The position numbers and the translations under genes are program-made. DNA of 64,000 nt from an uncultured Nitrospiraceae bacterium. GTDB taxonomy: Bacteria; Nitrospirota; Thermodesulfovibrionia; Thermodesulfovibrionales; Dissulfurispiraceae. Under the pieces are notes generated by a model that was not told the origin of the DNA, did no database searches, and saw nothing but the letters and a program-made list of their open reading frames with translations. The stretch lies in NCBI GenBank assembly GCA_947085205.1, contig CAMTVO010000020.1:1-64000 (forward strand), written 5' to 3'. This document shows positions 15,424-61,255 of this stretch, piece after piece. The stretch's first letter is position 1. The number at the start of each line of letters is the position of its first letter.

Positions 15424-15441
15424 GGTAAAATTCCCTTGACT
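15424..15441 (+). promoter_or_regulatory. locus motif copy 1 (degenerate) plus -35
   Basis: GGTAAAATTCCC immediately followed by TTGACT, upstream of the first locus gene; -10 box less clear. Confidence 0.55.
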
Positions 15442-15510
15442 TTTTAATCAATTAAGTAATAATAAAGCTATAAAAATATCGAGGTCTCTAAACAGTGGAG
15501 GGGTTTTCAT

Positions 15511-16560
15511 ATGAAACGGATTGTTTTTATCGGCGTTATATTCCTGCTATTTTTTATCTTTTCTTCATATAGCGAGGGCGCTCCTATCGGCAAAATATCG
15601 GAAATAAGCGGGAAGGTCTTATTCAGGGAAAAGGCCAATGTTCCTTATGATGATGCTAAAAAAGGACTTGATCTCGAAAAGGGCTGGTGGATAAAGACAG
15701 GCGCTGACGGATGGGCGGTCTTGTCATTGTCCGACAAGAGTAAACTGACGCTCGCCAATAATACCGAGATCGAAATCACCGAGTTTGTCATAGGCAAGGA
15801 CAAAAAGGACGGCGTATTCAGCGTAACGCAGGGCAAGCTGAGGGCATCCGTTACGAGGCTTGCAGGTGAGAGGGTGAATTATAAGATAAAGAGCCCCACA
15901 GCAGTTGCCGGAATTAAAGGCACCGAGTTTATGATGATGACACAGGGTCTTGCCAATGTGTTTTTTGGAAACGAAGGACAAGTGGAGATTTCAGGTGATA
16001 CAACTCCTTCAAAACCCCTACGTGTTGATACAATGGTACAGAATACAAGGAGCTATACACCCACAGACCCGGTGAAGGTCGAGCCCGACACGCCGCTTTA
16101 CACGGCCAAGAAAAACTTCGAGGAGATAACGGAAGCCGCGCCTCCAAAGGAGTGGGAGCTTTCCGGCAACCTGCCGAACATTATAGCAAGGTGGAATATA
16201 AATTACGGCCGTTATCTTGCCGACTCCGGAAGATATGAGGAAGCCATTTACGTATTTCAGATAGCCCTCGATTTAACAAGCCTGCCTGACATAAGAAGCG
16301 ACGCGCGGCTCGAAAGAGGAGCGGTTTATTCGAGATTTTTAAGGAATCCGGAAGCCGCCCTTGCGGAATATCTTTTGGTGATAGAAACATATCCGGTAGT
16401 TACACAGAGGGAAACTGCGCTTTATCTTGCCGGCATGACCCTTTACGAACTCGGATTTGCGGATCGGGCAAAGGAAAAACTCATGCAGTATAAAAAAGAA
16501 TATCCGTCGGGAAAACATATCAGTAATGTCGAGACAATACTGAATTTGTTAAGCAAGTAG
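15511..16560 (+). CDS. exported FecR-domain + TPR protein
   Basis: Signal peptide; IKTGADG...LANNTEI...GKLRA...SPTAVAGIKGTEF FecR-type motifs; helical TPR-like C-terminus. Confidence 0.85.
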   Translation: MKRIVFIGVIFLLFFIFSSYSEGAPIGKISEISGKVLFREKANVPYDDAKKGLDLEKGWWIKTGADGWAVLSLSDKSKLTLANNTEIEITEFVIGKDKKDGVFSVTQGKLRASVTRLAGERVNYKIKSPTAVAGIKGTEFMMMTQGLANVFFGNEGQVEISGDTTPSKPLRVDTMVQNTRSYTPTDPVKVEPDTPLYTAKKNFEEITEAAPPKEWELSGNLPNIIARWNINYGRYLADSGRYEEAIYVFQIALDLTSLPDIRSDARLERGAVYSRFLRNPEAALAEYLLVIETYPVVTQRETALYLAGMTLYELGFADRAKEKLMQYKKEYPSGKHISNVETILNLLSK

Positions 16561-16593
16561 GTTTAAAAATTTTCGTTTAATCAGAGGGTTGAT

Positions 16594-17460
16594 ATGAAAA
16601 ATTGGTATGTGGCCACAGCATTAGTGTTGCTTGTTTTTACAACCAACCTCTATGCCGCGCAATCCACAATTGCGCAAGGCGAAGGCTATGCGTGCATGGG
16701 AGAGGATAAGTCCAAGAGGCAGACCGAACAGGCTGCGGAAGCCGACGCAAAGAGAAAGGCGATGGAATCCGCATCGAGCTATATAAAGAGCGAGACCCAT
16801 GTCAAAGACTTCGAGCTTGAAAAGGATCTGGTTTCGGCTTATACGAATGCAACTTTAAAGAATATCAGGGTGCTTGAGAAGGGCTGGTATAAAGACCCTT
16901 CGTCGGGAGACTGCTATAAGATAAAGATCAGCGCCGAAGTAGTTCCGGACGAAAAAGCGATGGAAAAAGTTTCGAAGTCCAAACAGGTCATGGATGATCC
17001 TTCAGCGCCCCTTGCGATTCAACTCTGGACGGATAAAAAGGAATATGCAAGCGGGGATAAGGTAAGGGTTTACATCAAAGGCAATAAGCCGTTTTACGCC
17101 GTTGTTATTTATAAAGACGTCAAAGGAGAAATGCTCCAGCTTTTGCCGAACCCTTACAGGGCGGATAACTATTTCAGCGGCGGTGTTGTTTATGAGATCC
17201 CTTCGGGCAATGACCGTTTCGAGCTTGAGGTTAGCCCTCCGTTCGGCGAAGAAAACATATATGTCTATGCAAGCACGTCCCCTTTGGGCGATATCAAACT
17301 CAAGGCTGAAGGCGGGGTTTATCAGGTTAAGACAAAAGAGAAGGACATAGGCGGCATGACGAGGGCGGTTAAACTTAAGGAAAAGACAGGCAGCAAGGCC
17401 TCGGCGGCATCTGAGTTCTTTGAAGAAAAGGCTGTTTTAAAGACAGGGAGGGAAAAATGA
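16594..17460 (+). CDS. exported protein, FlgT-N/LPP20-like domain + DUF4384-like domain
   Basis: Signal peptide; AQGEGY...AEADAKRKAME module; WTDKKEY..GD.V...QLLPN...PPFGEE.IYVYAS. Confidence 0.75.
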   Translation: MKNWYVATALVLLVFTTNLYAAQSTIAQGEGYACMGEDKSKRQTEQAAEADAKRKAMESASSYIKSETHVKDFELEKDLVSAYTNATLKNIRVLEKGWYKDPSSGDCYKIKISAEVVPDEKAMEKVSKSKQVMDDPSAPLAIQLWTDKKEYASGDKVRVYIKGNKPFYAVVIYKDVKGEMLQLLPNPYRADNYFSGGVVYEIPSGNDRFELEVSPPFGEENIYVYASTSPLGDIKLKAEGGVYQVKTKEKDIGGMTRAVKLKEKTGSKASAASEFFEEKAVLKTGREK

Positions 17461-18184
17461 AGAATGCGATCATAGCCGTATTAGCCGCGCTGTTTTTTGT
17501 TCCATGCGCTGAAATAAAGGCTGCCGAGCCTCCTTCGGAGCCGATACTCCGCATAGAGACCGGAATGCACACGTCGGCGATAAAGAGGATAGGCATCGAC
17601 GCTGAGAACAGATACCTTGCCACAGGGGCCGACGACAAAACCGTCCGCATATGGGATTTATCCACAGGCAGGCTGATAAAGATATTGAGGATTCCGGTGG
17701 GAGACGGCAACGAGGGCAAGGTTTACGCGCTTGCAATGTCTCCGGACGGCAAGACTATCGCATGCGCCGGGTGGACGGGACAGCAGTGGGATAACATGTA
17801 TGCCTCGGTCTATTTATTCGACCGTGAAAGCGGAAGACTTATAAAAAGGATAAAAGGGATATCTGCCGCCATCTTCAATCTCACTTATTCACAGGTGTGA
17901 TAAATGAGCTTGCGAGTGCTGAAAACGGAGCGATAGTCTTTGCCGCGTCAACAGGCAATCAATATTCGCTTGAAGACAGGGCATGGAGAAACGGCGCGTT
18001 CACAAAGGCGTTAGTCGAGGGCATAAGCGGAAAGGCCGATTACACAGGAAAGGGGAAGATAACAATAAACATGCTTGACCTGTATCTATCAGAGAGGGTA
18101 AAGGAATTGACAAGGGGAAAACAGACGCCGACCACAACAAAGCCGAATACTATCTCTGATTTTCCTGTGGCAGTGAAGAAATAA
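17457..18184 (+). pseudogene. internally deleted WD40-caspase gene (WD40 N-fragment 17457-17900, caspase C-fragment 17897-18184)
   Basis: Signal peptide + EPILRIETGMHT...ATGADDKTVRIWD, ending abruptly; next frame has VFAASTGNQYSLED..WRNGAFTKALVEG...QTP, the caspase C-terminal half without the His/Cys dyad. Confidence 0.8.
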
Positions 18185-20307
18185 TGAAACTTCATAGACT
18201 CTTTGTATTTTCAGGAATTGGGATTGCCGCAGCCATCCTGTCGGTTGTTATTTATGCACAGAAGATAGACTTCTTCAACTCCCTTGACCTCAAGCTCAAG
18301 GATGTGAGATTCAGGACAAGGGGAAGCATTGAGCCTGACAAAAGGGTTGTTATTGTCGCCATAGACGAAAAGAGCATAAACGAGCTCGGCAGGTGGCCGT
18401 GGGATAGGAGGGTTATTGCAAAATTGATTGAAAACCTGAACTCCTACGGTGCAAAGACCATCGCATTCGATATTATCTTTTCAGAGTCCTCAAATCCTGA
18501 ATCGGATAAGGCATTGACAGATGCCATTCAGAAGAATGGAAATGTGATAGCAGGATATTTTTTCAGGTCAGAAGGAGAGACCCCTCCAAAAGAGGCGCTA
18601 ATGTTATTAGAGCAGTCAAGGGTAAAGATCATTAAGACCATAGGTAATGTCTCCGAAGTGCCTGTTTACAGTTATCCGACAGTCGAACTCAATATCCCTT
18701 TGATTGCACGGTCTGCGAGCAGTGCAGGTTTTTTTAACATTATTCCAGATACAGACGGTATTTTAAGAGCAGCCAACATATTGATGCTTTATGATGGCTA
18801 TGTCTATCCCTCGCTGCCGCTTGCAGCATTAAGACATTATATGGAAAGAGAGATGGTACTTGAGGTCGCCAATTACGGCGTGGACAATCTCCTGATAGGA
18901 AGCTATCGCATACCATGCGACGAATCAGGAAGACTTACCCTTAATTATTACGGCAGGCAGGGGATATTCAGGACAATACCTGCTGTTGATATAATCAAAA
19001 AAAGACTTAAGCCCGGCAGTCTAGAAGATTCTCTTGTCTTTGTTGGAGCAACAGAGGTCGGACTCTCTGACCTGCGTGCAACGCCTGTTGACCCTGTACT
19101 TCCGGGCATTGAGGTTCATGCAACCGTTGTATCCAATGCCCTTCAGAACAAACTCCTAATAAAGGACGGGAGGGTAATAGCATTAGACATTTTATTTATT
19201 ATAATCTTTGCCCTTATGCTGACCACGTCGTTGAGTCTTGTCAGAAGAACGCTTGCTGCACTTATACTATTTCTGGCGGCGCTTGGACTTTACTACATTA
19301 CAAATCATCTTGTCTTTAAGCATTATCCGTTAAACACATCAGTGCTATTTCCGCTTATTTCGATAACCCTTTCGTATCTCGGCTCAGAGGCCTACAGGAA
19401 TCTCATAGAAGAAAAGCATAGCAGGTTTCTTAAAAAGGCGTTTACAAGTTATGTGTCCCCTGCCCTTGTCGGAGAGATAATGAAAAACCCGGATATGCTT
19501 AAGCTCGGAGGCGAAAAAAGGAATATAACGGTTTTATTTTCCGATATAAGGGGCTTCACAACGATTTCCGAAAAGCTTACGCCGGAAGCCCTTGTGCATT
19601 TGCTTAATCAGTATCTGGGGCCGATGACGGATATAGTTTTGCAGCACCGGGGCACGCTTGATAAATATATAGGCGACGCCATTATGGCTTTGTATAACGC
19701 CCCGCTCGATGTTGAAGATCATCCACTTCAGGCATGCAAGAGCGCCCTCGCCATGATGGAGAAACTTAAGGACTTAAACACGGATTTTAAGGCAAACGGA
19801 CTGCCTAAAGTGGATATCGGCATCGGCATAAACACGGGCGATGTGATTGTCGGCAACATGGGAACGGATGTAAGGTTCGATTACACCGCAATGGGCGATA
19901 CCGTAAACCTTTCGTCGCGGCTCGAAGGTATGAACAAGATATACAAGACGCATATAATCTTTACCGAATTCACGCTCGATAAACTCAAGACCCTCGGACT
20001 TTTGCAGCAATACGCTGGAGAGCTTAGATTCAGGGAATTGGATTTTATAAAAGTTAAGGGCAAGGACAAGCCGGTAACTATTTATGAGCTTTCCGCAACG
20101 ATGGATGGCGCTGTTGCTAAGAAATTTGAAGAGGCGTTAATGCTTTACAGAAAGCAAAGTTTTAAAGAGGCATTAGAGATATTCGAAAGGCTCGATGCTG
20201 AAAACGGCGACAAGACCGCGGGAATATTCGCCGAAAGATGTGCCGAGTTTATGGAGAGCCCTCCCGGCGCGGACTGGGACGGCGTTTATGTGGCAAAAAC
20301 AAAGTGA
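18184..20307 (+). CDS. CHASE2-domain class III adenylate/guanylate cyclase
   Basis: IVAIDEKS...GRWPWDR CHASE2 motif, 3 TM segments, TVLFSDIRGFT, DKYIGDAIMA, DYTAMGDTVNLSSRLEG, VKGK; K and D specificity residues are adenylate-type. Confidence 0.95.
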   Translation: MKLHRLFVFSGIGIAAAILSVVIYAQKIDFFNSLDLKLKDVRFRTRGSIEPDKRVVIVAIDEKSINELGRWPWDRRVIAKLIENLNSYGAKTIAFDIIFSESSNPESDKALTDAIQKNGNVIAGYFFRSEGETPPKEALMLLEQSRVKIIKTIGNVSEVPVYSYPTVELNIPLIARSASSAGFFNIIPDTDGILRAANILMLYDGYVYPSLPLAALRHYMEREMVLEVANYGVDNLLIGSYRIPCDESGRLTLNYYGRQGIFRTIPAVDIIKKRLKPGSLEDSLVFVGATEVGLSDLRATPVDPVLPGIEVHATVVSNALQNKLLIKDGRVIALDILFIIIFALMLTTSLSLVRRTLAALILFLAALGLYYITNHLVFKHYPLNTSVLFPLISITLSYLGSEAYRNLIEEKHSRFLKKAFTSYVSPALVGEIMKNPDMLKLGGEKRNITVLFSDIRGFTTISEKLTPEALVHLLNQYLGPMTDIVLQHRGTLDKYIGDAIMALYNAPLDVEDHPLQACKSALAMMEKLKDLNTDFKANGLPKVDIGIGINTGDVIVGNMGTDVRFDYTAMGDTVNLSSRLEGMNKIYKTHIIFTEFTLDKLKTLGLLQQYAGELRFRELDFIKVKGKDKPVTIYELSATMDGAVAKKFEEALMLYRKQSFKEALEIFERLDAENGDKTAGIFAERCAEFMESPPGADWDGVYVAKTK

Positions 20308-20374: not shown

Positions 20375-23300
20375 ATGTCCGGAAGAAAAAAAATAATTTC
20401 CATGCTGATTTTATTGCTCGCATTTATTGCCAGTGCAGGCTTGGCACATGGTGGAAAGAATGAAGCGGAAAGCTTATGGGAGCTCGGTGAAAAGGCTTAT
20501 GATGCGGGCAGATATAAAGAAGCCCTTTCTTATTATGAAAAATCACTCTCTAAGTGCGCAGGGGATATTGAGTGCGCTGCCTCCAACCTTAACGGCATCG
20601 GTGCAGTTTATGAGGCGCTGGATGACGATAAAAAGGCATTAAAGTACTATGAAGATGCGCTTGCTGCAGCAAGGAAGATAAATAACAGGGATCTGATCGC
20701 AACGAACCTTTTTAATGTGGGAGCGGTCTACAGCCGAACGTTTCATCAATACGAGAAGGCATTGGTCCTCTTTGAGGAATCCTTGACGATATTCAGGGAA
20801 CTGAATGATAAGAAAAGCATCGCCATCGTTTTATTCAACACAGGCAAGGCTTTAAATTCTCTTGGCAGATATGAAAAAGCGCTGTCATATTTCAATGAAT
20901 CTCTGAAGGTAAACAGAGAGCTTAATAATCAGCAAGGCATTGCAGGAAATCTCAATCTGATAGGCAATGTGTATGCGAACCTTGGACAATATGACAAGCC
21001 GCTCTCATATTATCAGGAGGCGCTCAGGATAAATAAGAAGCTAAATATCCCGAATGAGATAGCCACAACATTAAGGAATATCGGCGACGCCTATTGCGAC
21101 CTCGTTGAATATGATAAAGCTCTCACATATTATCAGGATGCGTTGGATATACAGAAGAAACACAATTTTCGTTTTGATATGGCAGCAACCCTGACAAACA
21201 TAGGGGCTTTTTACAAAGACCTTAATCAATATGATAAAGCCCTTTCCTACTATGAGGGATCACTAAAAATAAGCAGGGAACTTGACAACTCTGCCGATAC
21301 TGCCACAAACCTGAATAACATAGGCAATGTATATGCATCTCTCGGTAAATCCGATAACGCCCTCTCTTATTATCATCAGGCATTGAGCATAGAAAAGCAG
21401 CTCAACAGGCCGCACAAAATGGCTATAACTCTTAACAACATCGGCATGGAGCATTTCCGTCTCGGCAGGTACGAACAGGCACTTTCTTATCTTAATGAGG
21501 CGCTTAAAATAGAAAGGAAGTTGAGCAATCCGCATAATATCGCTGCGAGACTGAATAATATCGGAGCTGTTTATTTGCGGCAAAAAAGATACAGAGAAGC
21601 TGAAGATGTATTTCTTGAAAGGAAAGATATAGGAAAGAGAATCACAAAGACCAGATTAATACATGCCGGATTAATAGAAGTTTATCTTGCAACAAAAAGA
21701 TACGATGAGGCATTGGCCTTGCTGAGAGAACTGCCTCCAAACTGGAGGGATAGCAGGAATCGCCGCATGGAATACCACACACAGTATGGTCTGGCATTAA
21801 AAGGCAAGGGACTACTCAGGGAGTCTGCGCAGGAATTGTTAAAGGCGGTTTCAATAGTTGAAGAGATAAGGCGTTCAGTGGGTGAGAAGAGTGAGTTTTT
21901 TGCCGGTGGCGGTTATATCGGCAGGTTAACACCTCACAGAGAGCTTGTAGCAGTTCTCTCAGAAATGGCTCTCAGAGGAGAAAGACCTGATGATAGCTTT
22001 AAACCTTTCGGCAGGGATTTGGCATCCGCCGCATTTTATTTTTCGGAGTTTACAAAGGCAAGGGCGTTTCTTGAGACAATGGCAGGCTCTGCAAGGAAAT
22101 ATGACGAGCTTGAAATTCCTTCTGAAATAAAAAACAGAGAGGCAGATATTCTAAAGGAGCTTTCATCAATAGAAGACAACTGGGAAAATGCCTATTCAAA
22201 AGGCGAGGCTGTTTTCAAAAGGCTTTCGCAGAGAAAAGAAGAGCTTAATAGAGAGCTAAATTCTCTGATTTCCTCCATAAGAAAAGATTTCCCTGCATAT
22301 GCTGCCGTAAATTATCCAAAGCCCATGCCGGCTGAAGACATGTCATTAACGGCAAATGAAGTCTTAATAGAGTTCGGCATAAGCAATGATGCAGTTGTTG
22401 TTTTTGTTGTAAGAAAAGGCGGTGTAAATAAAATCCATAAAATAAACATCTCTAAAGAAGAACTGACCGAGAAAGTAAAGAAATTTATAGAACCTTTAAA
22501 TTCTGGAAGGCACTCTGAATTTTCAACAAAGCTCGCAAAAGAGCTTTACGATATGCTGCTTTCAGGGTCACTGAAAGATGTTAAGGATTCGGAAAAACTG
22601 ATAATTGTCCCTGACGGAATACTCGGTCTTTTGCCATTTGAGGCATTGGTGATAAATGCAGGAAAAGACTATAAAGGTAATCTCTTTGTTGGCGACAAAT
22701 GGACAATAACGTACAGCCAGTCTGCAACAGCGCTTGCATTAACAAGGCTTTTGAAGCCCTCCGAAGCTAAAAAGCCTCTTTTTGCTTTGGGCAATCCTGT
22801 ATATGACAAATCAGACCCGAGATATATAGCATATAAAAAAGGCGGCTCTCAACAAATTGCTGCAAAGGATGTTAAACAATATGCTTACAGGGGCATCACC
22901 GTACTGCCGAAGGGGGAAAGGGAATGGGAAGAGGTAATATATTCGCCCCTTCCAGAAACAGAGGATGAGGTCAGAGAGATAGCAAAACTGTTTGGTGTAA
23001 AACCTGAGATGCCGGAGGTGCTTTTGAATATTTCGGCAAATGAAACAAATTTCAGGAATACCTTTCTTAAAGACTATCGCTACATACATCTTGCAACCCA
23101 TGCAGACTTGCCCGGAAAGGTTCAGGGCATAAAGGAGCCGTTTATAATTCTCGGTCAGGTCGAAAACAGGGGGCAGGATGATGGATTCCTCACCCTCACC
23201 GAAGTCCTCGAATTGAAACTTGACGCTGACATGGTGGTTTTGTCCGCCTGCTCCACGGGCAAAGGCAAAATGATGGAAGGTGAAGGTGTTGCCAATTTTG

Positions 23301-23515
23301 CAAGGGCATTTCAGCATGCAGGCACGAGAAGCGTTGTAGTGAGCCTCTGGGAGGTGGCTTCAGACGCAGCAGTAGAATATATGAAGTCGTTTTATAGCCA
23401 CATAAAGTCAGGCAAGAGCAAGGCAGAGGCATTGAGCCTTGCAAGAAACGAGATAAAGGCAAAATACCCGAATCCGTTTTACTGGGCAGTATTTATATTG
23501 TATGGAGAGGGATAA
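20375..23515 (+). CDS. exported TPR-repeat CHAT-domain protease
   Basis: Signal peptide, about 10 TPRs, IVPDGILGLLPFEAL, HLATHA and VLSACSTG dyad, VVSLWEV, PFYWAVF. Confidence 0.93.
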   Translation: MSGRKKIISMLILLLAFIASAGLAHGGKNEAESLWELGEKAYDAGRYKEALSYYEKSLSKCAGDIECAASNLNGIGAVYEALDDDKKALKYYEDALAAARKINNRDLIATNLFNVGAVYSRTFHQYEKALVLFEESLTIFRELNDKKSIAIVLFNTGKALNSLGRYEKALSYFNESLKVNRELNNQQGIAGNLNLIGNVYANLGQYDKPLSYYQEALRINKKLNIPNEIATTLRNIGDAYCDLVEYDKALTYYQDALDIQKKHNFRFDMAATLTNIGAFYKDLNQYDKALSYYEGSLKISRELDNSADTATNLNNIGNVYASLGKSDNALSYYHQALSIEKQLNRPHKMAITLNNIGMEHFRLGRYEQALSYLNEALKIERKLSNPHNIAARLNNIGAVYLRQKRYREAEDVFLERKDIGKRITKTRLIHAGLIEVYLATKRYDEALALLRELPPNWRDSRNRRMEYHTQYGLALKGKGLLRESAQELLKAVSIVEEIRRSVGEKSEFFAGGGYIGRLTPHRELVAVLSEMALRGERPDDSFKPFGRDLASAAFYFSEFTKARAFLETMAGSARKYDELEIPSEIKNREADILKELSSIEDNWENAYSKGEAVFKRLSQRKEELNRELNSLISSIRKDFPAYAAVNYPKPMPAEDMSLTANEVLIEFGISNDAVVVFVVRKGGVNKIHKINISKEELTEKVKKFIEPLNSGRHSEFSTKLAKELYDMLLSGSLKDVKDSEKLIIVPDGILGLLPFEALVINAGKDYKGNLFVGDKWTITYSQSATALALTRLLKPSEAKKPLFALGNPVYDKSDPRYIAYKKGGSQQIAAKDVKQYAYRGITVLPKGEREWEEVIYSPLPETEDEVREIAKLFGVKPEMPEVLLNISANETNFRNTFLKDYRYIHLATHADLPGKVQGIKEPFIILGQVENRGQDDGFLTLTEVLELKLDADMVVLSACSTGKGKMMEGEGVANFARAFQHAGTRSVVVSLWEVASDAAVEYMKSFYSHIKSGKSKAEALSLARNEIKAKYPNPFYWAVFILYGEG

Positions 23516-23527: not shown

Positions 23528-23539
23528 GGTAATTTTCAC
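23528..23539. promoter_or_regulatory. locus motif copy 2 (reverse-complement form)
   Basis: GGTAATTTTCAC is the exact reverse complement of GTGAAAATTACC; nearest TATAAT (23555) is not at canonical spacing and a REP starts at 23563. Confidence 0.55.
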
Positions 23540-27212: not shown

Positions 27213-27219
27213 AACCTGA

Positions 27220-27567: not shown

Positions 27568-27590
27568 TTGGTTTAAAAAAGAGATGCAAT

Positions 27591-29957: not shown

Positions 29958-29959
29958 AA

Positions 29960-51837: not shown

Positions 51838-51838
51838 G

Positions 51839-52652: not shown

Positions 52653-52693
52653 GATAATTTTCACCTTCCAAGAAGTTTTTTCTGGTATATAAT
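52653..52693 (+). promoter_or_regulatory. locus motif copy 7 plus -10 box
   Basis: GATAATTTTCAC-CTTCCA-N17-TATAAT; same geometry with a poor -35. Confidence 0.7.
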
Positions 52694-53127: not shown

Positions 53128-53523
53128 GTAACAAAGAGGAACTAAAGGAACTTATCCGATATTGGTTTGAAAAATCGCATGAATCTCTTGACGCAGCCCG
53201 TGATGAACTGAAGGCAGGCCGTCTTTCCTTTTCGGTGAACCGAATTTATTATTCTTGTTTTTATGCGGTCAGCGCAATCTTGCTTCAAGAAAAACTTCGG
53301 TTTAAGAAGCACTCCGGTGTGAGGGGCCGTATTACATCAACATCTCGTCAAATCAGGGAAAGTAAGTCATGAGCATGGGAAACTGTATGACGAACTTTTT
53401 GAAGCTCGCCAGAGAGGCGATCATATAGAGTTTGTCAGCTTTGAGGAAGAACAGGTAAAAGACTGGCTTCAACAGGCAAATCAATTTGTTGAGGCAATTA
53501 AGCGTTTAATCGAAAATGACTGA
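53124..53523 (+). pseudogene. HEPN-domain protein with a +1 frameshift
   Basis: NRIYYSCFYA...KKHSGV; removing one G from GGGG (53323-53326) gives RAVLHQHLVKSG...LFEARQRGDH...IKRLIEND*. Confidence 0.85.
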
Positions 53524-53550: not shown

Positions 53551-54762
53551 ATGAAGGGTAATTTAATTTCTTTGATCAGCGTCATCTTTATTCTGCTTGC
53601 GGGCATGGCGATGACAGGGTGTGTGACAACAACAGCGAGAACACCACTAATGCAAGCTGTAGAACAAAGCGACAGCAACGCTATCCGAGCTTTGCTTGAT
53701 AAGGGAGCAGATATAAACGAACAAAGCGACTATGATATAGGACCCGGAGGCAAGGGTTGGACTGCCTTACATCTTGCCGCAGTGAAAGATGATATAAAAG
53801 TCATTCGTTTATTGTTGGACTATGGTGCAGACCCAGGCATTACAACTAAATTTGGTTGGACACCATTGAAGTGGGCGGAGCAGAAAGGCAATAACTTTGT
53901 TGCAGGGATGCTCAAGGAGGCTATGGAAAAACGCTATGTGGTTGACAAGAAACCTACCCATATTACGACTGAAAAACCATTGAAATCCGATGTTGACGAA
54001 CTTCTAATATTTGTAAACGAGCATAAGGTTATCGGAGATCAGGATATAGCCATTGTCATTGGCATAGAAAAGTATCAGAATATCCCGAAGTCCGACTACT
54101 CAGCAGGTGATGCAAAACTCGTAAAGTCATATTTTAAGGCACTCGGGTTTGCAGAGAGAAACATAGAATTCATCACAGATGAAAGGGCGACAAAATCATC
54201 CATTGAAAAATCCATAGAGGCATGGCTTCCTAACAGGGTTAAAAAAGACAGTAAGGTTATTGTCTATTATTCAGGACACGGAGCGCCTGAGCCAAAGACA
54301 GGAGACGCTTATATTGTCCCATTTGACGGAGACCCGAATTATCTTGAGGTTACCGGGTATCCATTAAAGAGGCTTTACGATAAACTTGGGAAATTGCAAG
54401 TTGCAGAGGTTGTAGTTCTTCTTGACTCATGCTTCTCAGGCGCAGGCGGCAGGAGTGTTTTAGCAAAAGGAGCAAGACCATTGGTGATGATGACAGAGGC
54501 ATCGGTAATATCGTCAAATATGGCTATCCTTTCTGCAACACAAGGCACACAGATAAGCACATCATCACCTGAAAAAAGGCATGGGGTATTCACATATTAC
54601 TTTCTCAAGGCATTAAAAGAAGGAAAGAAGACAATTGCTGAGATTTATGAATACATCAAACCGTTGGTGGAGGACGAGGCAAAGACTCTTAATGTCCAGC
54701 AAAGCCCGAGCATAAGTCCTGATGCGGAGAAACTGAAGGGGCGGTTTATTTTGAGACGGTGA
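53551..54762 (+). CDS. ankyrin-repeat + caspase (C14) lipoprotein
   Basis: Lipobox MTGC, TPLMQA, GWTALHLAA, GWTPL ankyrins; YYSGHG and LDSCFSG dyad; QSP. Confidence 0.92.
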   Translation: MKGNLISLISVIFILLAGMAMTGCVTTTARTPLMQAVEQSDSNAIRALLDKGADINEQSDYDIGPGGKGWTALHLAAVKDDIKVIRLLLDYGADPGITTKFGWTPLKWAEQKGNNFVAGMLKEAMEKRYVVDKKPTHITTEKPLKSDVDELLIFVNEHKVIGDQDIAIVIGIEKYQNIPKSDYSAGDAKLVKSYFKALGFAERNIEFITDERATKSSIEKSIEAWLPNRVKKDSKVIVYYSGHGAPEPKTGDAYIVPFDGDPNYLEVTGYPLKRLYDKLGKLQVAEVVVLLDSCFSGAGGRSVLAKGARPLVMMTEASVISSNMAILSATQGTQISTSSPEKRHGVFTYYFLKALKEGKKTIAEIYEYIKPLVEDEAKTLNVQQSPSISPDAEKLKGRFILRR

Positions 54763-54799
54763 AAATTACCTTGACTTCATGGCTCAGGCAGGGTAGTTT
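54759..54799 (+). promoter_or_regulatory. locus motif copy 8 plus sigma70 promoter
   Basis: GTGAAAATTACC (contains the upstream TGA stop)-TTGACT-N17-TAGTTT. Confidence 0.75.
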
Positions 54800-54845
54800 T
54801 AAACTATAAAGATTATTTTTGAATAATTTCATAAAGGAGCCGCTT

Positions 54846-57128
54846 ATGAACGCAAAAAAAACCGCAATAATATTTTTTGCATTGTTATTTCTTTTTTCCT
54901 GCGCACCGCCTTCAGAAGTAAAAAAGGATATGCCTGAAATAACCGTATCCAAAGAAGAGATTCCGAGGATGGTTGCGATTCTTCCGTTCCAGAACGAAAC
55001 ACAGGAGACGGGAATTGCCAATCAGGTAAGAAGGGCATTTTATAACCATTTCAGTTCAAAACCATACACAGATGTTGAGCTTAATATTGTTGATGAAAAG
55101 ATTATACATCTTGAGAAATCAACAGGGAAAAATATCCTTGACCTGAAACCACAGGAGATATGTCAGGCAATAGGATGCGATGGATTAATCTACGGCAAAG
55201 TTACTGATTATACAAAGGTTTACGCTGGCGTTTATTCGCAGCTTGGCGTCGAGGCCGAGGTCTGGATGGTAAATAAGCGGACAGGCAAAGAGGTATTCAG
55301 GATAAAGGATGCAGTCAGGTATCACGAAGGCAGCGTGCCTCTCTCTCCCATCGGGCTGATAATGACTGCGGTGTCTACCGCAATGAACATAAGAGAGATC
55401 CAGCAGGTGAGAATGGTGAACGAGCTTGCCCATAAATTCAATGAAAAAATCCCCTCCCCCGAAGGTATGGCTGTTGAAGACAGGCCTACGATTAAGGAAG
55501 TCCTTACGAATGTTAAAGAGGGGCCTTTCGGCAAAGGGAAGATTATAAGAGTCGGACTCGAAGGCGAAAAGGGGCTGGTCGCCACCTTTGACATCGGGAA
55601 CTTCAAAAAAGGCATTTTGATGAAGGAGACAAAGCCCGGCATTTATCTTGGAGAATATCTCGTGATATCCGGAGACAACGCAAAGGACATGCCTATCATA
55701 GCCTCCTTAAAAAAGCCCGGTGGTTATGAAAGCCAGTGGATTGATGTAAGCGGCTTTGTGACCATTGATACAACACCACCGCCGCAGGTAGCCGGTCTAA
55801 GGGCAAAGGGATTTCAGGACAGAATAGAGGTTACATGGGAGCCTCTCAAGAATATTGCTGACTTAAAGGGGTATAAGGTCTTAAGAAGCGAGCAGCCATT
55901 GAGCGGATATGCGGAGGTTTCGGCAACAGAACATACATCGTTTGAAGACAAGACCGCAAAGCCGAACATTGCATATTATTACAGGGTGATTGCTGTTGAC
56001 CAAGTGGGTAATGAATCCGAACTCGTAGATGCCGTTAAATCAGCCGTTACATCGAAGGAGCCCGTGCTTTTAAGTGGAGAGATCAGAACGGATACAGCGC
56101 TTGCAGGGAATTACATCGTGAAAGATTCGCTGACGGTTCCGAAGGGTTTATCCCTTGTCATAGAGCCCGAAACGAGGATAATGTTTGAAGAAAACTCGTC
56201 GTTGACTGTTTACGGCAAAATAGTCGTAAACGGAAAAGAATCTCCTGTGGAGTTTATCCCATCGGGTAATAAGAAATGGAAAGGCATTAGCGTCGAGAGA
56301 GGCAGCATCACTATAAATGGCTTGAGGATAAAGGGAGCCGTTACCGCGATGTTACTGCAAAACGCAGAGGGAATGCTGGATTCAGGAGTAATTACGGACA
56401 GCGATACGGGCATTGCGGTTTCCGGTACGCCTTCTGTAATAATTAAAAACACTGCCGTCTCAGGAAATAAAACAGGGATAGAACTTCAAAAGACGGACGC
56501 AAGGATTATGAACAGCAATATCTTTCAGAATGAAGACGGAATAGCTATCAAAAGCTTTTCAGGCGAGATTAAGGACAACAATATTTTTGACAATAGCCTG
56601 AACATTTCGTCTGAGTCTATGGTTAAAATCGACCCCAATTATCTCGGCTCTATAAATACCGATGAAATGAAAATCAAGGGTGTTGGTATAACTAAGGTTT
56701 ATGACAACAGGATACCAGGCGGAAAGGTCGTTGATGCGATCTCAAATCCTTATGCGTCGCTGAGTAATGAAGACCGCCAGAAAAAGGCTACAGAATTCGT
56801 CATTGAGGCAGGCAATTATTTCAGGCAGAGGAATTACGGAAAGGCGACGACACTGTTTGAAGAAGCGCTGAAGGCTCTTCCCACGCCGGATGTTTATTAT
56901 TATCTCGCTATCTGCTATCAGGAGATGAAAGAAGAGGAAAGGGCGTTAAAGTATTTGAAAGAAGGCGCAGACAAATTCCCGAAAGATTCGACGCTCCAAA
57001 AATCCCTCGGCCTTATGTATTACCAGAAAGGGGATGATGCAGAGGCGAAAAAGGTATTCGAAGAGGTATTGAGATTAAGCCCAGAAGATAGACAGGTGAG
57101 GTTTTTGATGGAGAGAATAGGAAAGTAA
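54846..57128 (+). CDS. multidomain lipoprotein: GNA1162/DUF799-like + FN3 + beta-helix + TPR
   Basis: Lipobox LFSC, VAILPFQNET...DGLIYGKV, DTTPPPQV...YYYRVIAVD (FN3), parallel beta-helix repeats, C-terminal TPRs. Confidence 0.8.
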   Translation: MNAKKTAIIFFALLFLFSCAPPSEVKKDMPEITVSKEEIPRMVAILPFQNETQETGIANQVRRAFYNHFSSKPYTDVELNIVDEKIIHLEKSTGKNILDLKPQEICQAIGCDGLIYGKVTDYTKVYAGVYSQLGVEAEVWMVNKRTGKEVFRIKDAVRYHEGSVPLSPIGLIMTAVSTAMNIREIQQVRMVNELAHKFNEKIPSPEGMAVEDRPTIKEVLTNVKEGPFGKGKIIRVGLEGEKGLVATFDIGNFKKGILMKETKPGIYLGEYLVISGDNAKDMPIIASLKKPGGYESQWIDVSGFVTIDTTPPPQVAGLRAKGFQDRIEVTWEPLKNIADLKGYKVLRSEQPLSGYAEVSATEHTSFEDKTAKPNIAYYYRVIAVDQVGNESELVDAVKSAVTSKEPVLLSGEIRTDTALAGNYIVKDSLTVPKGLSLVIEPETRIMFEENSSLTVYGKIVVNGKESPVEFIPSGNKKWKGISVERGSITINGLRIKGAVTAMLLQNAEGMLDSGVITDSDTGIAVSGTPSVIIKNTAVSGNKTGIELQKTDARIMNSNIFQNEDGIAIKSFSGEIKDNNIFDNSLNISSESMVKIDPNYLGSINTDEMKIKGVGITKVYDNRIPGGKVVDAISNPYASLSNEDRQKKATEFVIEAGNYFRQRNYGKATTLFEEALKALPTPDVYYYLAICYQEMKEEERALKYLKEGADKFPKDSTLQKSLGLMYYQKGDDAEAKKVFEEVLRLSPEDRQVRFLMERIGK

Positions 57129-57185
57129 TATAATGCATATGCTCCATGCAAACGGATAGTCTTGCTTTTAAGGGAGGGGTTCACA

Positions 57186-58784
57186 ATGCGTAAAAGAACA
57201 AAATGGCTCGGATTGATATTGCTGGCATTGCTTGCGACCGGGTGCGTTACCATATCAAAAGACATGTATCAGCGCAATATGGTATGGGATACCGTTCCTG
57301 CTGGCGGGTATATAGATGCCAATGTTCATATAGAATCCGACTGCAACTTCAGTGCGGAGTATGCGAAGTTGTGGAGAGACTGGATGAACACCGATGAAAC
57401 CATTGCAAATTACAAGAGAGCGGTTTGCGAACGCATTACCGAAGATATGATTAAATCACGCATATTTACGAGGGTCGACATAGGCGGTCAACTGGATCTG
57501 CTGATCAGGATTGAGTATACCGAATCTCAGGCTGACCAGAAGGTTGCCGTTAATGTCATGGATCCCATAAGCGGTAAAGTTCATGCGATATATGGAACAT
57601 CTTCGGTCCGGATGGGCTACGGGTATGAGAATTTTAATGCCAACTTAAAGCGCATGCTTTCCGAGATAAGAAGCCAGATGCTTGCGGAATATCAGGCAGG
57701 AAAAGGCATAAAGACGCTACTCGCCTCAAGGCAGGCTCTCGGCGTTACGCAGCAGGCTCAACGATATAAGACTGACGCGGAAGATATAACCGTGCCGTTG
57801 TCCCCCGGCGAGAAACTTCCTCCTCTCAGGCGTGAAATATATGCGGTTGTGATCGGCATAGACTACGCAGGCAGGGAAGATATGCCTAATCTTCAATACG
57901 CGGCGACAGACGCTAAAAAGGTATACAGCCTGCTGGTAGACCCACGATATGGAGGAGTGCCTAAAGAAAATGCAATACTACTTCTCAACGAAAAAGCAAC
58001 AAGGAACGAAATGGTAGCGGCATTGAGAAAGATAAAGAACTGGGATGGATATGTATATGTTTATTACTCGGGTCACGGAGCGCCCAAGACAAAAGGAGAC
58101 AAGTTCATGGATGCCTTTCTTGTGCCTCATGATGCTGTAATAACCGACCCCGAGGCGATGGAAGATACAAGCATAAAGATGTCATATCTACAGGAGCTCG
58201 TGGACACATCCAACGCAAAGGGAGTAATGCTTGCCTTGGATGCCTGTTTTTCAGGAGGAGGAAAATCCATAGTACCAAAGGGAGGGAAGCCCTTGGTAGG
58301 AATAATGGTAACTCCCGAGATAATGAAACCGAAGGGTACGGGCAAGGTAATTATCACGTCATCCGCGACAAACGAGCAATCGTGGGAAGACGAAAAAGAA
58401 CTAAAATCAGGCATATTCAGCCATTATCTGCTGGAGGGGATGAAGGGCGGCGCCGGGAAAGACATGTGGGTGAAGGTGGATGAACTGGCGGATTACATAA
58501 AGGAAAACGTATCGAGGGCGGCGAGAAAATTAAAGGGCATGAATCAGAATCCCCAGATATCCGGCAGGGGAGATTTTGCAGTAACGAGGAACTGGGAGAG
58601 GGCAAAGGTAATGGACGTAGAGATAGCCAGATCTAAGCTCAAATCGGCGTTTGAGAGCGGAAGTATCAGTGCGGATCAGTTGAGCAGGGCGCTGGATGAA
58701 CTTAAGTCGCAGAGTCGTTCGAAGACTCTGGATGCGTTTTTGCAAGGCAAGATCGATGATAAGAAGTTCGGGGATTTATATTAA
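57186..58784 (+). CDS. caspase-family (C14) lipoprotein with a distinct N-terminal domain
   Basis: Lipobox ATGC; C-terminal ~320 aa closely parallels 50680-51837 (YYSGHG, LDACFSG). Confidence 0.92.
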   Translation: MRKRTKWLGLILLALLATGCVTISKDMYQRNMVWDTVPAGGYIDANVHIESDCNFSAEYAKLWRDWMNTDETIANYKRAVCERITEDMIKSRIFTRVDIGGQLDLLIRIEYTESQADQKVAVNVMDPISGKVHAIYGTSSVRMGYGYENFNANLKRMLSEIRSQMLAEYQAGKGIKTLLASRQALGVTQQAQRYKTDAEDITVPLSPGEKLPPLRREIYAVVIGIDYAGREDMPNLQYAATDAKKVYSLLVDPRYGGVPKENAILLLNEKATRNEMVAALRKIKNWDGYVYVYYSGHGAPKTKGDKFMDAFLVPHDAVITDPEAMEDTSIKMSYLQELVDTSNAKGVMLALDACFSGGGKSIVPKGGKPLVGIMVTPEIMKPKGTGKVIITSSATNEQSWEDEKELKSGIFSHYLLEGMKGGAGKDMWVKVDELADYIKENVSRAARKLKGMNQNPQISGRGDFAVTRNWERAKVMDVEIARSKLKSAFESGSISADQLSRALDELKSQSRSKTLDAFLQGKIDDKKFGDLY

Positions 58785-58793: not shown

Positions 58794-60407
58794 ATGAGAA
58801 AATCAATCGGCTTATGCCTTTTATTAGTGATGCTTTTTGGGGGGTTGTCTTACGCCAAGACCCTTATACTCGAAGGGAGGCTCAACAGCAGGGTTCAGGT
58901 GACCCAGCAGATAAACTTCAGTGTCAGCAGTCCCCTCTCAAAACTCTCTTTCAGGTTTGCACTCCCGGCAGGCTTTTCAAATAAAACTGTTTCACAGAAT
59001 ATTCACGGATTCAATATCAATTTTGACCCTCAGCCTGTAAAGATTGATGATGAGACAGATGCGTTTGGAAACAGGTTTAAGATAGCTGCATGGAACAATC
59101 CCTCCAGAGATGTGAGGTTAAATATAACCTTTGAGGTGTCCTTAAAATCTGAGCTGTCAGCAATGGAAAGCATATCTCCTTATCCTTTAAAGTCAATACC
59201 CCAGAACGAAATGATTTATCTTAAGCCCACTGAGATGGTTCAGAGCAGCAGTCCGGAGATTGTCTCCCTTTCAAGAAAACTTGTAGGCAACGCAAAAACA
59301 GAATATGAGGCAGTTACTGCCATACTGAATTATGTTATAGATAATGTTAAGTACACCTATAATCCTCCGCAATTCGATGCCCTGTATACGCTGAAAACAA
59401 AATCGGGCAACTGCCAGAACTTCGCCCATCTCAACATGGCGCTTTTACGTGCTGTCGGCATACCGGCCCGTATTGTGGGAGGCATAAGCCTGAAACAGCC
59501 GCTGAAGGTGACTGTCGGCAATAACGATTTTCTTGTGCAGAGTTTAGGACAGGGAGGCCACGCCTGGATGGAGATCTATTTTCCGGATCTGGGATGGCTG
59601 TCTTACGATCCCCAGCAGTCAAAGCAGTTTACGTCTTCACGGCATATCAAACAGACTCACGGTCTCGATTCGGATGATATAAACGACTCATGGAGAGGGG
59701 CTCCTTATCTGCCGGAATACAGCGAAACCGTGAATGCCAAATTTCTTGACGATGTTATTTCGCTTAAAATGAAATCTTCGGAAAGGTCGCCGAGGGCATA
59801 TTTTTTGAGTAATAATTTTTTTACAAAGGCCGAAGTAAAGCCGTATCCGCCTTATGAAAAGCCGAAATTGCCGCCCGGTAAAATTATAGAATTCGGCAAT
59901 ATGGAGTTTCCGAGTCTTGTAAATATATATCAGATAGTGGGAGATAAAGGCGTGAGGATACTCGATAAGGAGACCGCCGAATATGTAACGTCCAGCTATG
60001 TATATGCTCAGGCATTCGAGATAGACGAAAAGCTGAATATCGATAAAATTTCCCTTGCGATGAGAAAATTCGGCGGAGACGGCACTGTTTATGTGGACCT
60101 CGTATCCGACGAAAACGGCAGGCCGGGGTTTGAAGGGATGCGATCCGTGCCTCTATTTCTCGAAAACATCAAAAGGATGCCCGGATATTATTGGGTGGAT
60201 TTTACTTTTCCGGAGAAAGCAGTTCTTAAAAAGGGCAGATACTGGATAGTTCTGAGGCATTCGGGAGAAGCGATAATGAACTGGTTTTATATTCCCGGAA
60301 ATCCTTACGGCGACAGCGACGACACTCGTTCTACATTAAAAGGCTACAAGTGGGAAGATATACAGAACTATGACTTTGTTTTCAAGGTAAGAGCAGGTAG
60401 ATTATAA
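58794..60407 (+). CDS. exported transglutaminase-like protein, copy 2 (intact)
   Basis: Signal peptide SYA-KT; GNCQNFA, GHAWMEIY, WLSYDP. Confidence 0.9.
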   Translation: MRKSIGLCLLLVMLFGGLSYAKTLILEGRLNSRVQVTQQINFSVSSPLSKLSFRFALPAGFSNKTVSQNIHGFNINFDPQPVKIDDETDAFGNRFKIAAWNNPSRDVRLNITFEVSLKSELSAMESISPYPLKSIPQNEMIYLKPTEMVQSSSPEIVSLSRKLVGNAKTEYEAVTAILNYVIDNVKYTYNPPQFDALYTLKTKSGNCQNFAHLNMALLRAVGIPARIVGGISLKQPLKVTVGNNDFLVQSLGQGGHAWMEIYFPDLGWLSYDPQQSKQFTSSRHIKQTHGLDSDDINDSWRGAPYLPEYSETVNAKFLDDVISLKMKSSERSPRAYFLSNNFFTKAEVKPYPPYEKPKLPPGKIIEFGNMEFPSLVNIYQIVGDKGVRILDKETAEYVTSSYVYAQAFEIDEKLNIDKISLAMRKFGGDGTVYVDLVSDENGRPGFEGMRSVPLFLENIKRMPGYYWVDFTFPEKAVLKKGRYWIVLRHSGEAIMNWFYIPGNPYGDSDDTRSTLKGYKWEDIQNYDFVFKVRAGRL

Positions 60408-60418
60408 AGAGACGACTT

Positions 60419-60805
60419 TTGGGTGCATCCCTTACGCCTCCTGACTGGCAGGTAACCATGGGGAATCCGAAAAAGATTGTAGATATGTGGAAAAAAGGTT
60501 ATTTTATTCTCTGCATAACAGAAGATATAGTCCTGGAATATGTAGAGGTTCTAAACAGATTGAATATTCCGATCAGGAAAATAAAAGAGTTGACAGGTCT
60601 TCTTAAAGAAAGAGCAAATGTAGAGTTTCTCGTAAACACTGAAAAAATGGAGATACTAGAAGACGATCCTCAAGACAATAAGTTTATAGAGTGTGCAGTT
60701 GCTGCAAATGCTCGGTATATTATCTCTGGCGATAAGCATTTAAGGGCATTAAAAAGTTTCGGCAATATCAAAATACTTTCACCTTCCGAATTTTTAGAGT
60801 TATGA
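60419..60805 (+). pseudogene. PIN-domain toxin-like gene, apparently missing its N-terminal VLDTN strand
   Basis: EYVEVL, DDPQDNKFIECAV, IISGDKHL; no first catalytic Asp motif and no antitoxin upstream. Confidence 0.65.
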
Positions 60806-60921
60806 AAAAACTTTTATTACTCTCTCCCCTTGCTGCCAAAAGTTTTCTCGGCGGAGATTTTTATTTCAGCCTCCCCTATCTCCCGTCCCTCAGGGGGAGG
60901 GGGAATGACAACTTGGGATGC

Positions 60922-61190
60922 AACAAAATCGAAAGGTCGGGAGACGAGGTAACGGCGAGGGCGGGGCTTACAATGTTTGACGGATTCATGAAGGCGATGA
61001 AGATTGAAGAGATAATAAGCAAGCATAAAACAGTGAACTGCTTACTGCTTAAGGTCGCTGAGTCTGATGCAATACGGAGGTGGCAGGCACATAGCCGATT
61101 TAAGGGAACTAAGAGAAGAGAAGACAAGACATTACAGAAAGCATCAGGGCTGAAAAGCATACCGTCAAATTCCGGAACAGGGGAGTGGTC
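60922..61190 (+). mobile_element. degenerate transposase fragment, IS1380-like
   Basis: KIERSGDEVTARAGLTMFDGFMKAMKIEEII and GLKSIPSNSGTGEW resemble IS1380-family N-terminal motifs; no DDE domain. Confidence 0.45.
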
Positions 61191-61255
61191 TATGTCTATT
61201 TTTCGGACTTGTTTTTGTTATTGTAAATTGGTCATTGGTTATTTTAATATTCAGA

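Follow-up and report, generated by a model that had tools for sequence, protein, structure and literature searches.

A stretch of 64,000 nucleotides from an uncultured Nitrospiraceae bacterium (Dissulfurispiraceae in the GTDB lineage; assembly GCA_947085205.1, contig CAMTVO010000020.1, positions 1 to 64,000), referred to here as the window, was found to contain a locus of exported proteins which extends from position 15424 to about 60800, with rtcA on one side and hemH on the other. Contig C20, at whose start the window lies, belongs to a surveyed genome of 1.89 Mb that is 89.7% complete. Named close homologues of its proteins come from Nitrospirota, most of them from Thermodesulfovibrionales, and the placement in Thermodesulfovibrionia follows these names, as the assembly yielded no 16S motif. 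A preliminary description had placed a candidate new system at 15424..61200, made up of exported caspases, a CHAT protease and transglutaminases with their own cyclase and CRP. Its start was retained, its end was moved back to 60407/60805 (hemH starts at 61235), and all named open reading frames (ORFs) were located where it had placed them. The locus is very probably one co-regulated system with a core and accessory proteases. The conserved core consists of a non-flagellar scaffold of FlgT-, FlgO-, Lpp20-, CsgG- and SLH-type proteins, a transglutaminase-like enzyme (TG), an Mla-like unit with a dead ATPase and a FecR-cyclase-CRP switch; the caspases are accessory. Using an in-house rule based on hydrophobicity and lipoboxes, which is not SignalP and over-calls membrane proteins, export-like starts were assigned to 29 of the 38 locus ORFs and to 404 of 1631 ORFs elsewhere in the genome. 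By the same rule all seven enzymes proposed to be exported have a signal-like or lipobox start. Coordinates are those of the window and features lie on the forward strand unless marked (-).

The scaffold operon starts with a FlgT-like exported protein (43193..44407, PF16548), followed by an exported protein with CsgG-like and FlgT-C domains (44429..45400), a TPR-SLH lipoprotein, which is the probable cell-wall anchor (45498..46712, PF00395), a protein with an Lpp20/FlgT-N-fold and a Tp0624-D2-fold domain (46740..47660) and a small FlgO-like exported protein (47664..48173, weak PF17680 match, E 0.002). No RNA data set was listed as covering 42301-52300, which bears in neither direction on expression. 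A lipoprotein combining GNA1162-like, Fn3-like, beta-helix and TPR parts lies further on (54819..57128); like the CsgG-like protein, it was assigned from the Pfam scan and the gene neighbourhoods. The domains of the protein at 46740 were assigned from a structure model (predicted local distance difference test score, pLDDT, 71.5; predicted template modelling score, pTM, 0.41). This model matched 5JIR (Tp0624 D2) with Z 14.1 and a root-mean-square deviation (rmsd) of 2.8 over 119 aligned positions, and 5OK8 (Lpp20) with a middling Z of 6.2 (rmsd 4.9, 92 aligned). D2 of Tp0624 is described as a fold of unknown function (PMC5104382), and FlgT, FlgP and Lpp20 have a common SHS2 fold, some of them making membrane-linked rings (PMC12222027).

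Two TGs are encoded. TG2 (58794..60407), the core copy, was modelled (pLDDT 68.4) as a transglutaminase fold (Cys207, His256, Asp272) with a C-terminal jelly-roll, lectin-like domain. The model matched 3ISR with Z 19.4 (rmsd 3.6, 255 aligned), and the jelly-roll matched the lectin-like domain of Cwp84 with Z 10.4 (rmsd 3.1, 138 aligned). TG1 (48331..49935, Transglut_core match) is a second copy with an intact triad, in which a frameshift near 49915 appears to replace the last ~20 residues and the start codon is uncertain. The triad was invariant in 40 of 40 aligned sequences, which by residue conservation shows TG2 to be an enzyme and is silent on the direction of the reaction. A Cys-His-Asp triad is common to transglutaminases and to proteases or hydrolases of the same fold; TgpA and factor XIII have this fold, and 3ISR is annotated as a putative cysteine protease. 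On the reverse strand lies the Mla-like unit, with a TPR lipoprotein (39020..39904 (-)), an MlaD/MCE protein with a long coiled coil (39897..40853 (-), PF02470), an MlaF-like ABC subunit (40873..41514 (-)) and an MlaE permease (41511..42287 (-), PF02405). Motif alignment identified the MlaF-like subunit as a conserved pseudo-ATPase. None of the 19 rows that reach across the Walker A position has this motif, and all 20 rows examined are without the signature and the Walker B Asp-Glu with the catalytic Glu, so that the unit has no motor of its own. Two further MlaE genes are present elsewhere in the genome.

The switch is made up of an exported FecR-TPR protein (15511..16560, PF04773), a CHASE2 class III cyclase (18184..20307; PF05226, PF00211) and a CRP-family regulator (42354..43106, probable start 42408). 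FecR-TPR is a fixed partner of the cyclase and retains the Gly-Thr motif, which we take to be the self-cleavage site of FecR proteins. In the cyclase both metal-binding Asp, the Asn/Arg residues and the purine-selecting Lys/Thr residues are present, a set presumably indicating the adenylate type. FecR lies immediately 5' of the cyclase in 18 of 21 loci (some genomes counted twice); in the other three a WD40-C14 gene separates them, and a broken version of that gene does so in the window. The CRP has cyclic nucleotide monophosphate (cNMP)-binding motifs and a conserved SREA recognition helix, and is from its sequence the candidate for binding the promoter box described below. Beside the CRP or Mla block of another locus a BrkB/YihY membrane protein is fused to a cNMP-binding domain (L014:2778-3995 (-)); similar genes lie 5' of the CRP in G034, G089, G110, G122 and G154. 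From its domains this fusion is a candidate second cyclic AMP (cAMP) receptor. The BrkB gene of the window (1306-2148) is unfused.

Co-inheritance was assessed in 151 genomes of the same class, in which kin are not independent, so that all genome counts describe patterns and are not tests, and Fisher tests on them overstate. TG2 relatives were found in 28 of the 151. A cyclase orthologue (at least 51% identity) was present in 27 of these TG-bearing genomes and in none of the 123 others, even when encoded elsewhere in the genome, and the LPP20-like gene (46740) occurred in 26 of the 151, all TG-bearing (26/28 versus 0/123). The families thus co-occur across genomes, and the locus is not the random accretion that had been named as the alternative. 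CRP at 56% identity or more was detected in 21 of the 28 and in one other genome, DUF4384 in 25 of the 28 and 32 of the 123, and C14 in 19 of the 28 and 23 of the 123 by a search that misses some copies. In 25 stretches of relatives the order CRP, FlgT-like, CsgG-like, TPR-SLH, LPP20-like, TG, FlgO-like, GNA1162 lipoprotein is stable, with the FecR-cyclase and MlaEFD-TPR blocks near this core; caspases, CHAT, DUF4139 and small exported genes are gained and lost. The synteny holds across families, and close homologues of core proteins are found in the cultured Thermodesulfovibrio yellowstonii and Dissulfurispira thermophila.

TG neighbourhoods were also collected from named genomes (80 loci, at most 10 kb per side, 40 of them shorter than 15 kb). 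The partners most often seen were LPP20-like (31) and FlgT-N (31), followed by SLH (27), CsgG (25), GNA1162 (24), FecR (13), the cyclase (12) and C14 (8). Outside the class, an LPP20-like match was obtained in 42 of 301 genomes of the phylum to which the Geobacteraceae record L036 belongs, and 14 regions read there often retain the scaffold and Mla genes. In the Geobacteraceae locus itself a class II cAMP phosphodiesterase-like gene (L036:11824-12612 (+)) lies between TG and MlaE, and genes of similar size flank other loci.

In the intergenic DNA a 10-mer, GTGAAAATTA, was spotted by eye. It belongs to a 12-bp box that seven or eight promoters of the locus carry immediately next to their −35. 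Of the 12 exact matches to the 10-mer in the genome, six lie in the 46 kb locus, against 0.29 expected. A variant at 15424..15435 adjoins the TTGACT −35 5' of FecR-TPR, with a similar variant 5' of FecR in G008, G064 and L068. The copy at 23528..23539 lies in reverse orientation 5' of DUF4139. At 27527..27538 the box is followed by TTTACG, 17 bp and TATAAT, at 34487..34498 by TTGACC, 5' of the PLDc_N peptide and WD40-C14, and at 43127..43138, 5' of the scaffold operon, it is a full palindrome (GTGAA-NN-TTCAC) followed by TTGACA, 17 bp and TACACT. The best conserved site (45419..45430) precedes TTTACA and the TPR-SLH gene. A reversed copy at 52653..52664 is followed by CTTCCA, 17 bp and TATAAT, and the copy at 54759..54770 by TTGACT, 5' of the GNA1162 lipoprotein, C14 and TG2. 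Among 33 distinct sites, 29 have a TTGACA-like hexamer at once after the 12-mer, mostly with a TATAAT-like hexamer 17 bp after the −35. The occurrence in both orientations and as a palindrome is what a regulator binding as a dimer, with its centre near −41.5, should show; the numbering assumes a standard transcription start. A centre near −41.5 is the class II position of CRP-family activators, and the placement of the dyad beside the −35 would fit the geometry of a class II CRP-dependent promoter.

The box was found to track the system. A 16-mer corresponding to the window's four exact copies occurs in 22 of the 28 system-bearing genomes and in 8 of the 123 others, and the reversed 16-mer, used as control, in one of 151. 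Within genus g33 the counts are 7 of 7 genomes with the system and 0 of 4 without. Box-like sites precede orthologues of SLH (20/37), FlgT (11/30) and GNA1162 (7/27), versus 8 of 780 unrelated cytoplasmic ORFs, and of the six system genomes from which the exact 16-mer is missing, four likewise yielded no close CRP. The canonical TGTGA-N6-TCACA had no match on the contig at one mismatch. A composite box pattern with eight of its 10 hits in the locus was set aside as circular, being derived from the locus sites. Together, co-occurrence and the promoter box support the earlier proposal of a single co-inherited, co-regulated and exported system. The 16-mer also occurs with DUF4384 or caspase genes and no TG core in G112, G100, G046 and G076, which perhaps hold a reduced, scaffold-free version.

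Four caspase-like (C14) proteins are encoded in the locus. In a hidden Markov model (HMM) search PF00656 scored above its cut-off at 34841, 50680, 53551 and 57162/57186, as had been described, and these are the only four matches in the genome; the locus also contains the genome's single CHAT match and two of its three Transglut_core matches. The His/Cys dyads of the four caspases and CHAT, and the Cys-His-Asp triads of both TGs, were found intact as reported. The exported WD40-C14 (34841..39001, His1222/Cys1275) has a variable propeller region of ~950 residues and a constant end of ~410 residues. The others are lipoproteins: a C14 with almost no N-terminal domain and a small C-terminal helical domain (50680..51837, His150/Cys207), an ankyrin-C14 (53551..54762, His243/Cys294) and a C14 with an unclassified N-terminal domain (57162..58784, start 57186), whose protease end is 80% identical in nucleotides to that of 50680. 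None of the three has Asp at +2, which in the E. coli rule means sorting to the outer membrane, where they are likely to reside. The TPR-CHAT protease (20375..23515, His909/Cys959) is exported and accessory. Of the variable sensor domains attributed earlier to the caspases, WD40 and ankyrin were recovered and TPR was not; among the proteases of the window TPRs sit on CHAT and on none of the caspases, and TPR-C14 fusions were seen in G017. The deleted fifth caspase is real (17457..18184). Its signal and first WD40 repeats (17457-17900) are followed by a caspase tail in another frame (about 17891-18184), and comparison with the intact copy in G064 shows about 2.16 kb, including both catalytic residues, to be gone. 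Contigs from two runs of a single study, X1 (which may be the source) and X2, span the junction.

In a profile search the nearest solved relatives of the C14 domains were metacaspases. Both S1 Asp residues align with those of yeast and plant metacaspases (acidic pocket compared via PMC6426788), and cleavage after Arg or Lys is therefore predicted. A search of the PDB with one C14 domain as single sequence gave two chance TIM-barrel matches and was replaced by the profile search. All but one of the 58 aligned C14 domains retain the dyad (60 rows, two cut before the Cys column; the lone exception, L043:3654, is a spurious match). A dead catalytic Cys in some WD40-caspases, suggested by a regular expression, was rejected when the alignment revealed a mis-match. 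The export heuristic was positive for 48 of 60 C14 ORFs, the other 12 being cut, split, mis-started or spurious by eye. Modelled as a complex, the C14 domain of 50680 and the neighbouring DUF4384 protein scored 0.00, a result that was counted neither way. Further C14 genes were noted in relatives: an exported PDZ - S41 peptidase - C14 fusion with two proteases per chain (L012:9523-11880 (-), G018), an exported caspase with intact dyad within an Mla-like operon of another phylum (L160:5325-7883 (-), G330), and nine C14 genes, six in tandem, in two stretches of G017 (C27 and C39, L006-L010) with no core genes in the stretches read.

Seven C14 clusters were distinguished, and the number of proteases per locus ranges from none to eight or more with no fixed subfamilies. 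Of the 92 C14 pairs that are at least 70% identical, 78 have unlike N-termini, among which are WD40, ankyrin, TPR, PDZ, CARDB and S41 peptidase domains. When the window WD40-C14 was compared with five relatives, identity was 0-69% per 70-residue block in the first ~950 residues and 77-99% in the last ~400. Between G089 and G110 the C14 domain is 98.8% identical, the propeller region 42% and other locus proteins 71-95%. Judged from these comparisons, the N-terminal binding ends vary far faster than the cutting ends, as in immune receptors. The window CHAT is 81-90% identical to the copy of G110, which belongs to another family, versus 47-64% to those of its own family; this identity pattern is a sign of cassette transfer.

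Full-length serpin matches (PF00079) were obtained in four of the 151 genomes (G008, G033, G056, G064), all four inside this locus, besides two weak partial matches in other genomes. Two of the four lie directly 5' of a caspase gene. Each has an inhibitory-type hinge (Gly-Thr-x-Ala4) and, by the usual numbering rule, a P1 Lys that would match the predicted preference of the proteases. Plant serpins inhibit metacaspases (PMC10609998) and CrmA inhibits caspases (PMC7863939).

Several described systems resemble parts of the locus. With CyaD1/CyaD2/CyaK-Clr of S. meliloti, together with SMc02177 (FecR) and NsrA, it shares a CHASE2 cyclase, a CRP-family regulator and FecR and TPR exported proteins (PMC5498481, PMC13001267). 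The S. meliloti cyclases respond to foreign protein and act through Clr on exported proteins with FecR and TPR domains (PMC13001267, PMC5498481). Cyclase, regulator and FecR partner are all present here, and no NsrA-like outer-membrane barrel was found among the window ORFs, to which the Pfam scan was confined. The module in the window differs in being joined to the scaffold, TG, Mla-like unit and proteases, and in its box. DdvA of Myxococcus xanthus is a periplasmic TPR-CHAT with a His-Cys dyad which regulates a CBASS-CRISPR island and is proposed to sense a phage-linked protein, cut itself and signal by proteolysis (PMC11506125). DdvA is a transmembrane anti-sigma factor for an extracytoplasmic function (ECF) sigma, whereas the window CHAT is soluble, exported, accessory and in a cAMP regulon; its signal peptide is followed at once by TPRs, and no sigma factor was found in the window scan. 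DdvA and 46 prokaryotic caspase homologues with likely signal peptides counted in 2012 (PMC3501461) contradict the earlier statement that characterised caspase and CHAT immune systems are cytoplasmic. DdvA is the one periplasmic CHAT found in print, and the other characterised bacterial caspase systems act in the cytoplasm.

The C14 fold, dyad, acidic S1 pocket and variable partner domains are shared with prokaryotic ortho- and metacaspases (PMC3501461, PMC6426788) and with the EACC1/EACC2 systems with variable ends (PMC8195603). Here, in contrast, every complete copy appears to be exported, variation lies at the N-terminus, in the periplasm, and the genes sit in one regulon. NF047832 scored 74-91 bits for window proteins (cut-off 140), and no gasdermin, Cas7-11 or EACC1 partner was found among 54 window ORFs searched with Pfam or 22 with PADLOC. 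SHS2/Lpp20, FlgT, FlgO and CsgG-like folds also make up the Vibrio H-ring (FlgT, FlgO, FlgP) and the Campylobacter FlgP basal disk (PMC12222027), whereas the locus is unlinked to flagella by position or distribution and adds SLH, Tp0624-D2, GNA1162 and TG. With Mla/MCE transporters it shares MlaE, MlaD and MlaF-like genes in one operon, but the MlaF motifs are absent in every copy seen and a TPR lipoprotein takes the place of MlaB/MlaC/MlaA. The Cys-His-Asp core is that of Cytophaga 3ISR, Pseudomonas TgpA and LapG, and Clostridioides Cwp84 combines a protease with a lectin-like domain; the window TG is a soluble exported form with a C-terminal jelly-roll. The system can be likened to a CyaD/Clr module to which a scaffold of H-ring type and periplasmic proteases of DdvA type have been added, yet it belongs to none of these, since it has no flagellar link, no anti-sigma, no active MlaF and no gasdermin, Cas or EACC1 partner.

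No published account of the combination was found in the literature covered, to which supplementary neighbourhood tables of the Aravind type, which could hold one, do not belong. New here are the promoter box tracking the system, the hypervariable N-termini on near-constant protease ends and the P1-Lys serpin in the loci of relatives. We hold with high confidence that the system is real, co-regulated and undescribed in kind. The exported caspases counted in 2012 had been given no setting, and the locus now supplies one: a core whose members are defined, a regulator candidate together with its predicted DNA site, a predicted P1 specificity and a candidate inhibitor.

Our tentative preference, at a little less than an even chance, is a cAMP-controlled periplasmic surveillance by swappable sensor-proteases, for which the periplasmic TPR-CHAT DdvA and the CHASE2 cyclases sensing foreign protein are precedents. 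A periplasmic scaffold of FlgT/FlgO/Lpp20/CsgG/GNA1162 folds would be tied to the wall by the SLH lipoprotein and carry the transglutaminase-fold enzyme and the ATPase-dead Mla/MCE unit. FecR-TPR and the CHASE2 cyclase would produce cAMP, upon which the locus CRP may bind the 12-bp box beside the −35 of the locus promoters; the box 5' of FecR and the cyclase would then give feedback. The N-terminus, which varies and may be of WD40, ankyrin, TPR, PDZ or Ig-like type, would bind a foreign or damage-related periplasmic protein and thereby turn on the constant Arg/Lys-type caspase or CHAT domain. The activated protease, docked on or near the wall-anchored scaffold, might cut the ligand or a locus protein and feed the FecR-cyclase-CRP loop, which would drive all of the locus; the P1-Lys serpin could damp this proteolysis. 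In this scheme we infer that the CRP binds, and whether it activates or represses, that the scaffold assembles and that ligands are sensed, as well as the substrates and any defensive outcome. If true, surveillance would extend bacterial immunity by a new layer beyond the inner membrane.

A number of observations weigh against surveillance by proteases. By a search that misses some copies, no C14 was found in nine of the 28 system-bearing genomes, including the 99-100% complete G034, G086 and G153, and 13 of the 14 LPP20-like regions in the phylum of L036 are without a caspase (14 of 14 without the box). The scaffold therefore works without caspases and, with C14 in only 8 of the 80 TG neighbourhoods, the view of the proteases as the heart of the system is not supported. 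No partner family lies in reach in 35 of the 80 TG loci, mostly those of Geobacter-type TGs, one of which sits behind guaB-guaA. G034 has the CRP and no box was found there, while G033, G075 and G097 have the box and no close CRP was found; the GTGA/TCAC halves are 4 bp apart and not the 6 bp canonical for CRP, and the copy at 23528, where the −35/−10 spacing misfits, has no fitting −10. No serpin was found in the genome of the window, and the four serpins are 64-85% identical and not independent. Serpins mostly target serine proteases, and these might block foreign serine proteases instead. No known defence family in PADLOC or NCBIfam spans the system, with hits at the level of domains only, and ends that vary in what they bind are just as characteristic of adhesins.

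The main rival, which we consider doubtful, is surface display and maturation. The scaffold would be an outer-membrane assembly or export platform, WD40, ankyrin and Ig-like parts would be adhesins or capture proteins, and the constant caspase end would serve to process or anchor them, a role that clan CD enzymes play in some secretion systems; the TG would trim or attach surface proteins, and cAMP-CRP would set an attached or biofilm state. The core persists without caspases and is built from ring- and surface-type folds (PMC12222027), the lectin-like domain of TG resembles that of the S-layer protease Cwp84, partner proteins have Fn3 and CARDB domains, and Clr of S. meliloti controls surface polysaccharide and exported proteins (PMC5498481). 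On the other hand, the Pfam scan of the window ORFs returned no family of outer-membrane barrels, hardly any passenger domain is present on caspase 50680, a caspase/DUF4384 cassette is placed between FecR and cyclase, and a serpin suits a protease that needs restraint. Display, if true, would still be an undescribed non-flagellar use of H-ring folds with an ATPase-dead MCE unit. Surveillance may also be extended to an extracytoplasmic innate immunity of diderms, in which horizontally exchanged, serpin-checked receptor-proteases on a ring-like scaffold would signal via FecR-cyclase to their own CRP regulon and end in TG cross-linking that seals the envelope or traps the injection machinery of an invader, an independent parallel of clotting and complement; as a whole this is unlikely.

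The loose likeness to clotting or complement in the preliminary description gains from the serpins in four relatives' loci. An ordered cascade, with caspases and CHAT switching on each other as well as the TG, which would then cross-link envelope or matrix proteins like a clot, is distinctly improbable; protease numbers of none to eight or more with unfixed subfamilies are unlike it. Several protease subfamilies do lie side by side, the TG triad is invariant in a fold shared with TgpA and factor XIII, and the serpin has a matching P1, but TG stands alone in those 35 of 80 loci and its nearest solved relative carries the annotation of a cysteine protease. Cassette turnover, leaders shared by unrelated bodies and transfer between families recall polymorphic toxin loci, and fratricide has been raised for exported caspases (PMC3501461). 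Offence of this kind, with scaffold and Mla-like unit exporting proteases or cassette proteins onto neighbouring cells and the variable ends picking the target, is nevertheless very improbable, for here the enzyme is constant and the binder variable, the reverse of polymorphic toxins, three of the four window caspases are lipid-anchored with no regular immunity gene 3' of them, and by sequence the ABC subunit cannot hydrolyse ATP. We see hardly any chance that caspases and cassettes merely gather in a tolerant region of exported genes, or that the core serves the flagellum as an accessory. The locus does contain several broken genes along with toxin-antitoxin pairs, and caspases also occur in 23 of 123 core-free genomes; yet boxes precede units containing caspases and cassettes, and the genome's four caspases are all in the locus. 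A flagellar role of the core was rejected because 11 of the 28 genomes with the core yielded no FlgI, whose gene is present in 77 core-free ones; the window genome's own flgI is on another contig.

Further exported proteins complete the locus. They comprise a FlgT-N/LPP20-like protein with DUF4384 of type a (16594..17460, PF14326) and two accessory proteins, a DUF4139/DUF4140 protein of the MuiA family (23732..25351, TIGR02231 above cut-off) and a FlgT-N-like TPR protein (25370..26869). A YajG-like lipoprotein (50054..50668; Atlas 0.95, Lipoprotein_16, a lead) is found beside lipoprotein caspases, and a FlgT-N-like protein with DUF4384 of type b (51809..52651, probable start 51839) is mostly so placed.

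A variable cassette block occupies 26901..34764, with small exported or membrane proteins, a TPR-PDZ-thioredoxin protein, a split gene, a remnant, a PIN toxin-antitoxin pair and the PLDc_N peptide. The split gene (28608-29816 (+)) has an in-frame stop at 29454-29456 and shares its leader with the WD40-caspase (83% nucleotide identity over 109 bp); its His/Cys order resembles permuted NlpC/P60 by eye, and both halves are without a Pfam match. The two exported genes at 29942-32062 (+), one of them TPR-PDZ-thioredoxin, are likely a recent arrival (GC 0.56 in 30001-32000). The short ORF at 33673-34445 (+), which ends in the N-terminal motif of the WD40-caspase and is interrupted by the antitoxin-PIN pair, is probably another displaced caspase. 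Contig joints skip the block from 28605 to 34841 in X2 and from 28728 to 33791 in X4, a hint resting on single short contigs at repeated leaders. An MNT nucleotidyltransferase with a broken, frameshifted partner, HEPN-like by eye, is inserted at 52777..53520; in G008 and G018, too, MNT genes are neighbours of ankyrin caspases, and a PIN gene lies at the edge of the locus (60419-60805). Upstream of the locus, 2464-11353 (+) contains an ordinary operon of formate dehydrogenase/NuoEFG type that includes fdhD and fusions to response regulators, followed by pilB-pilT and rtcA.

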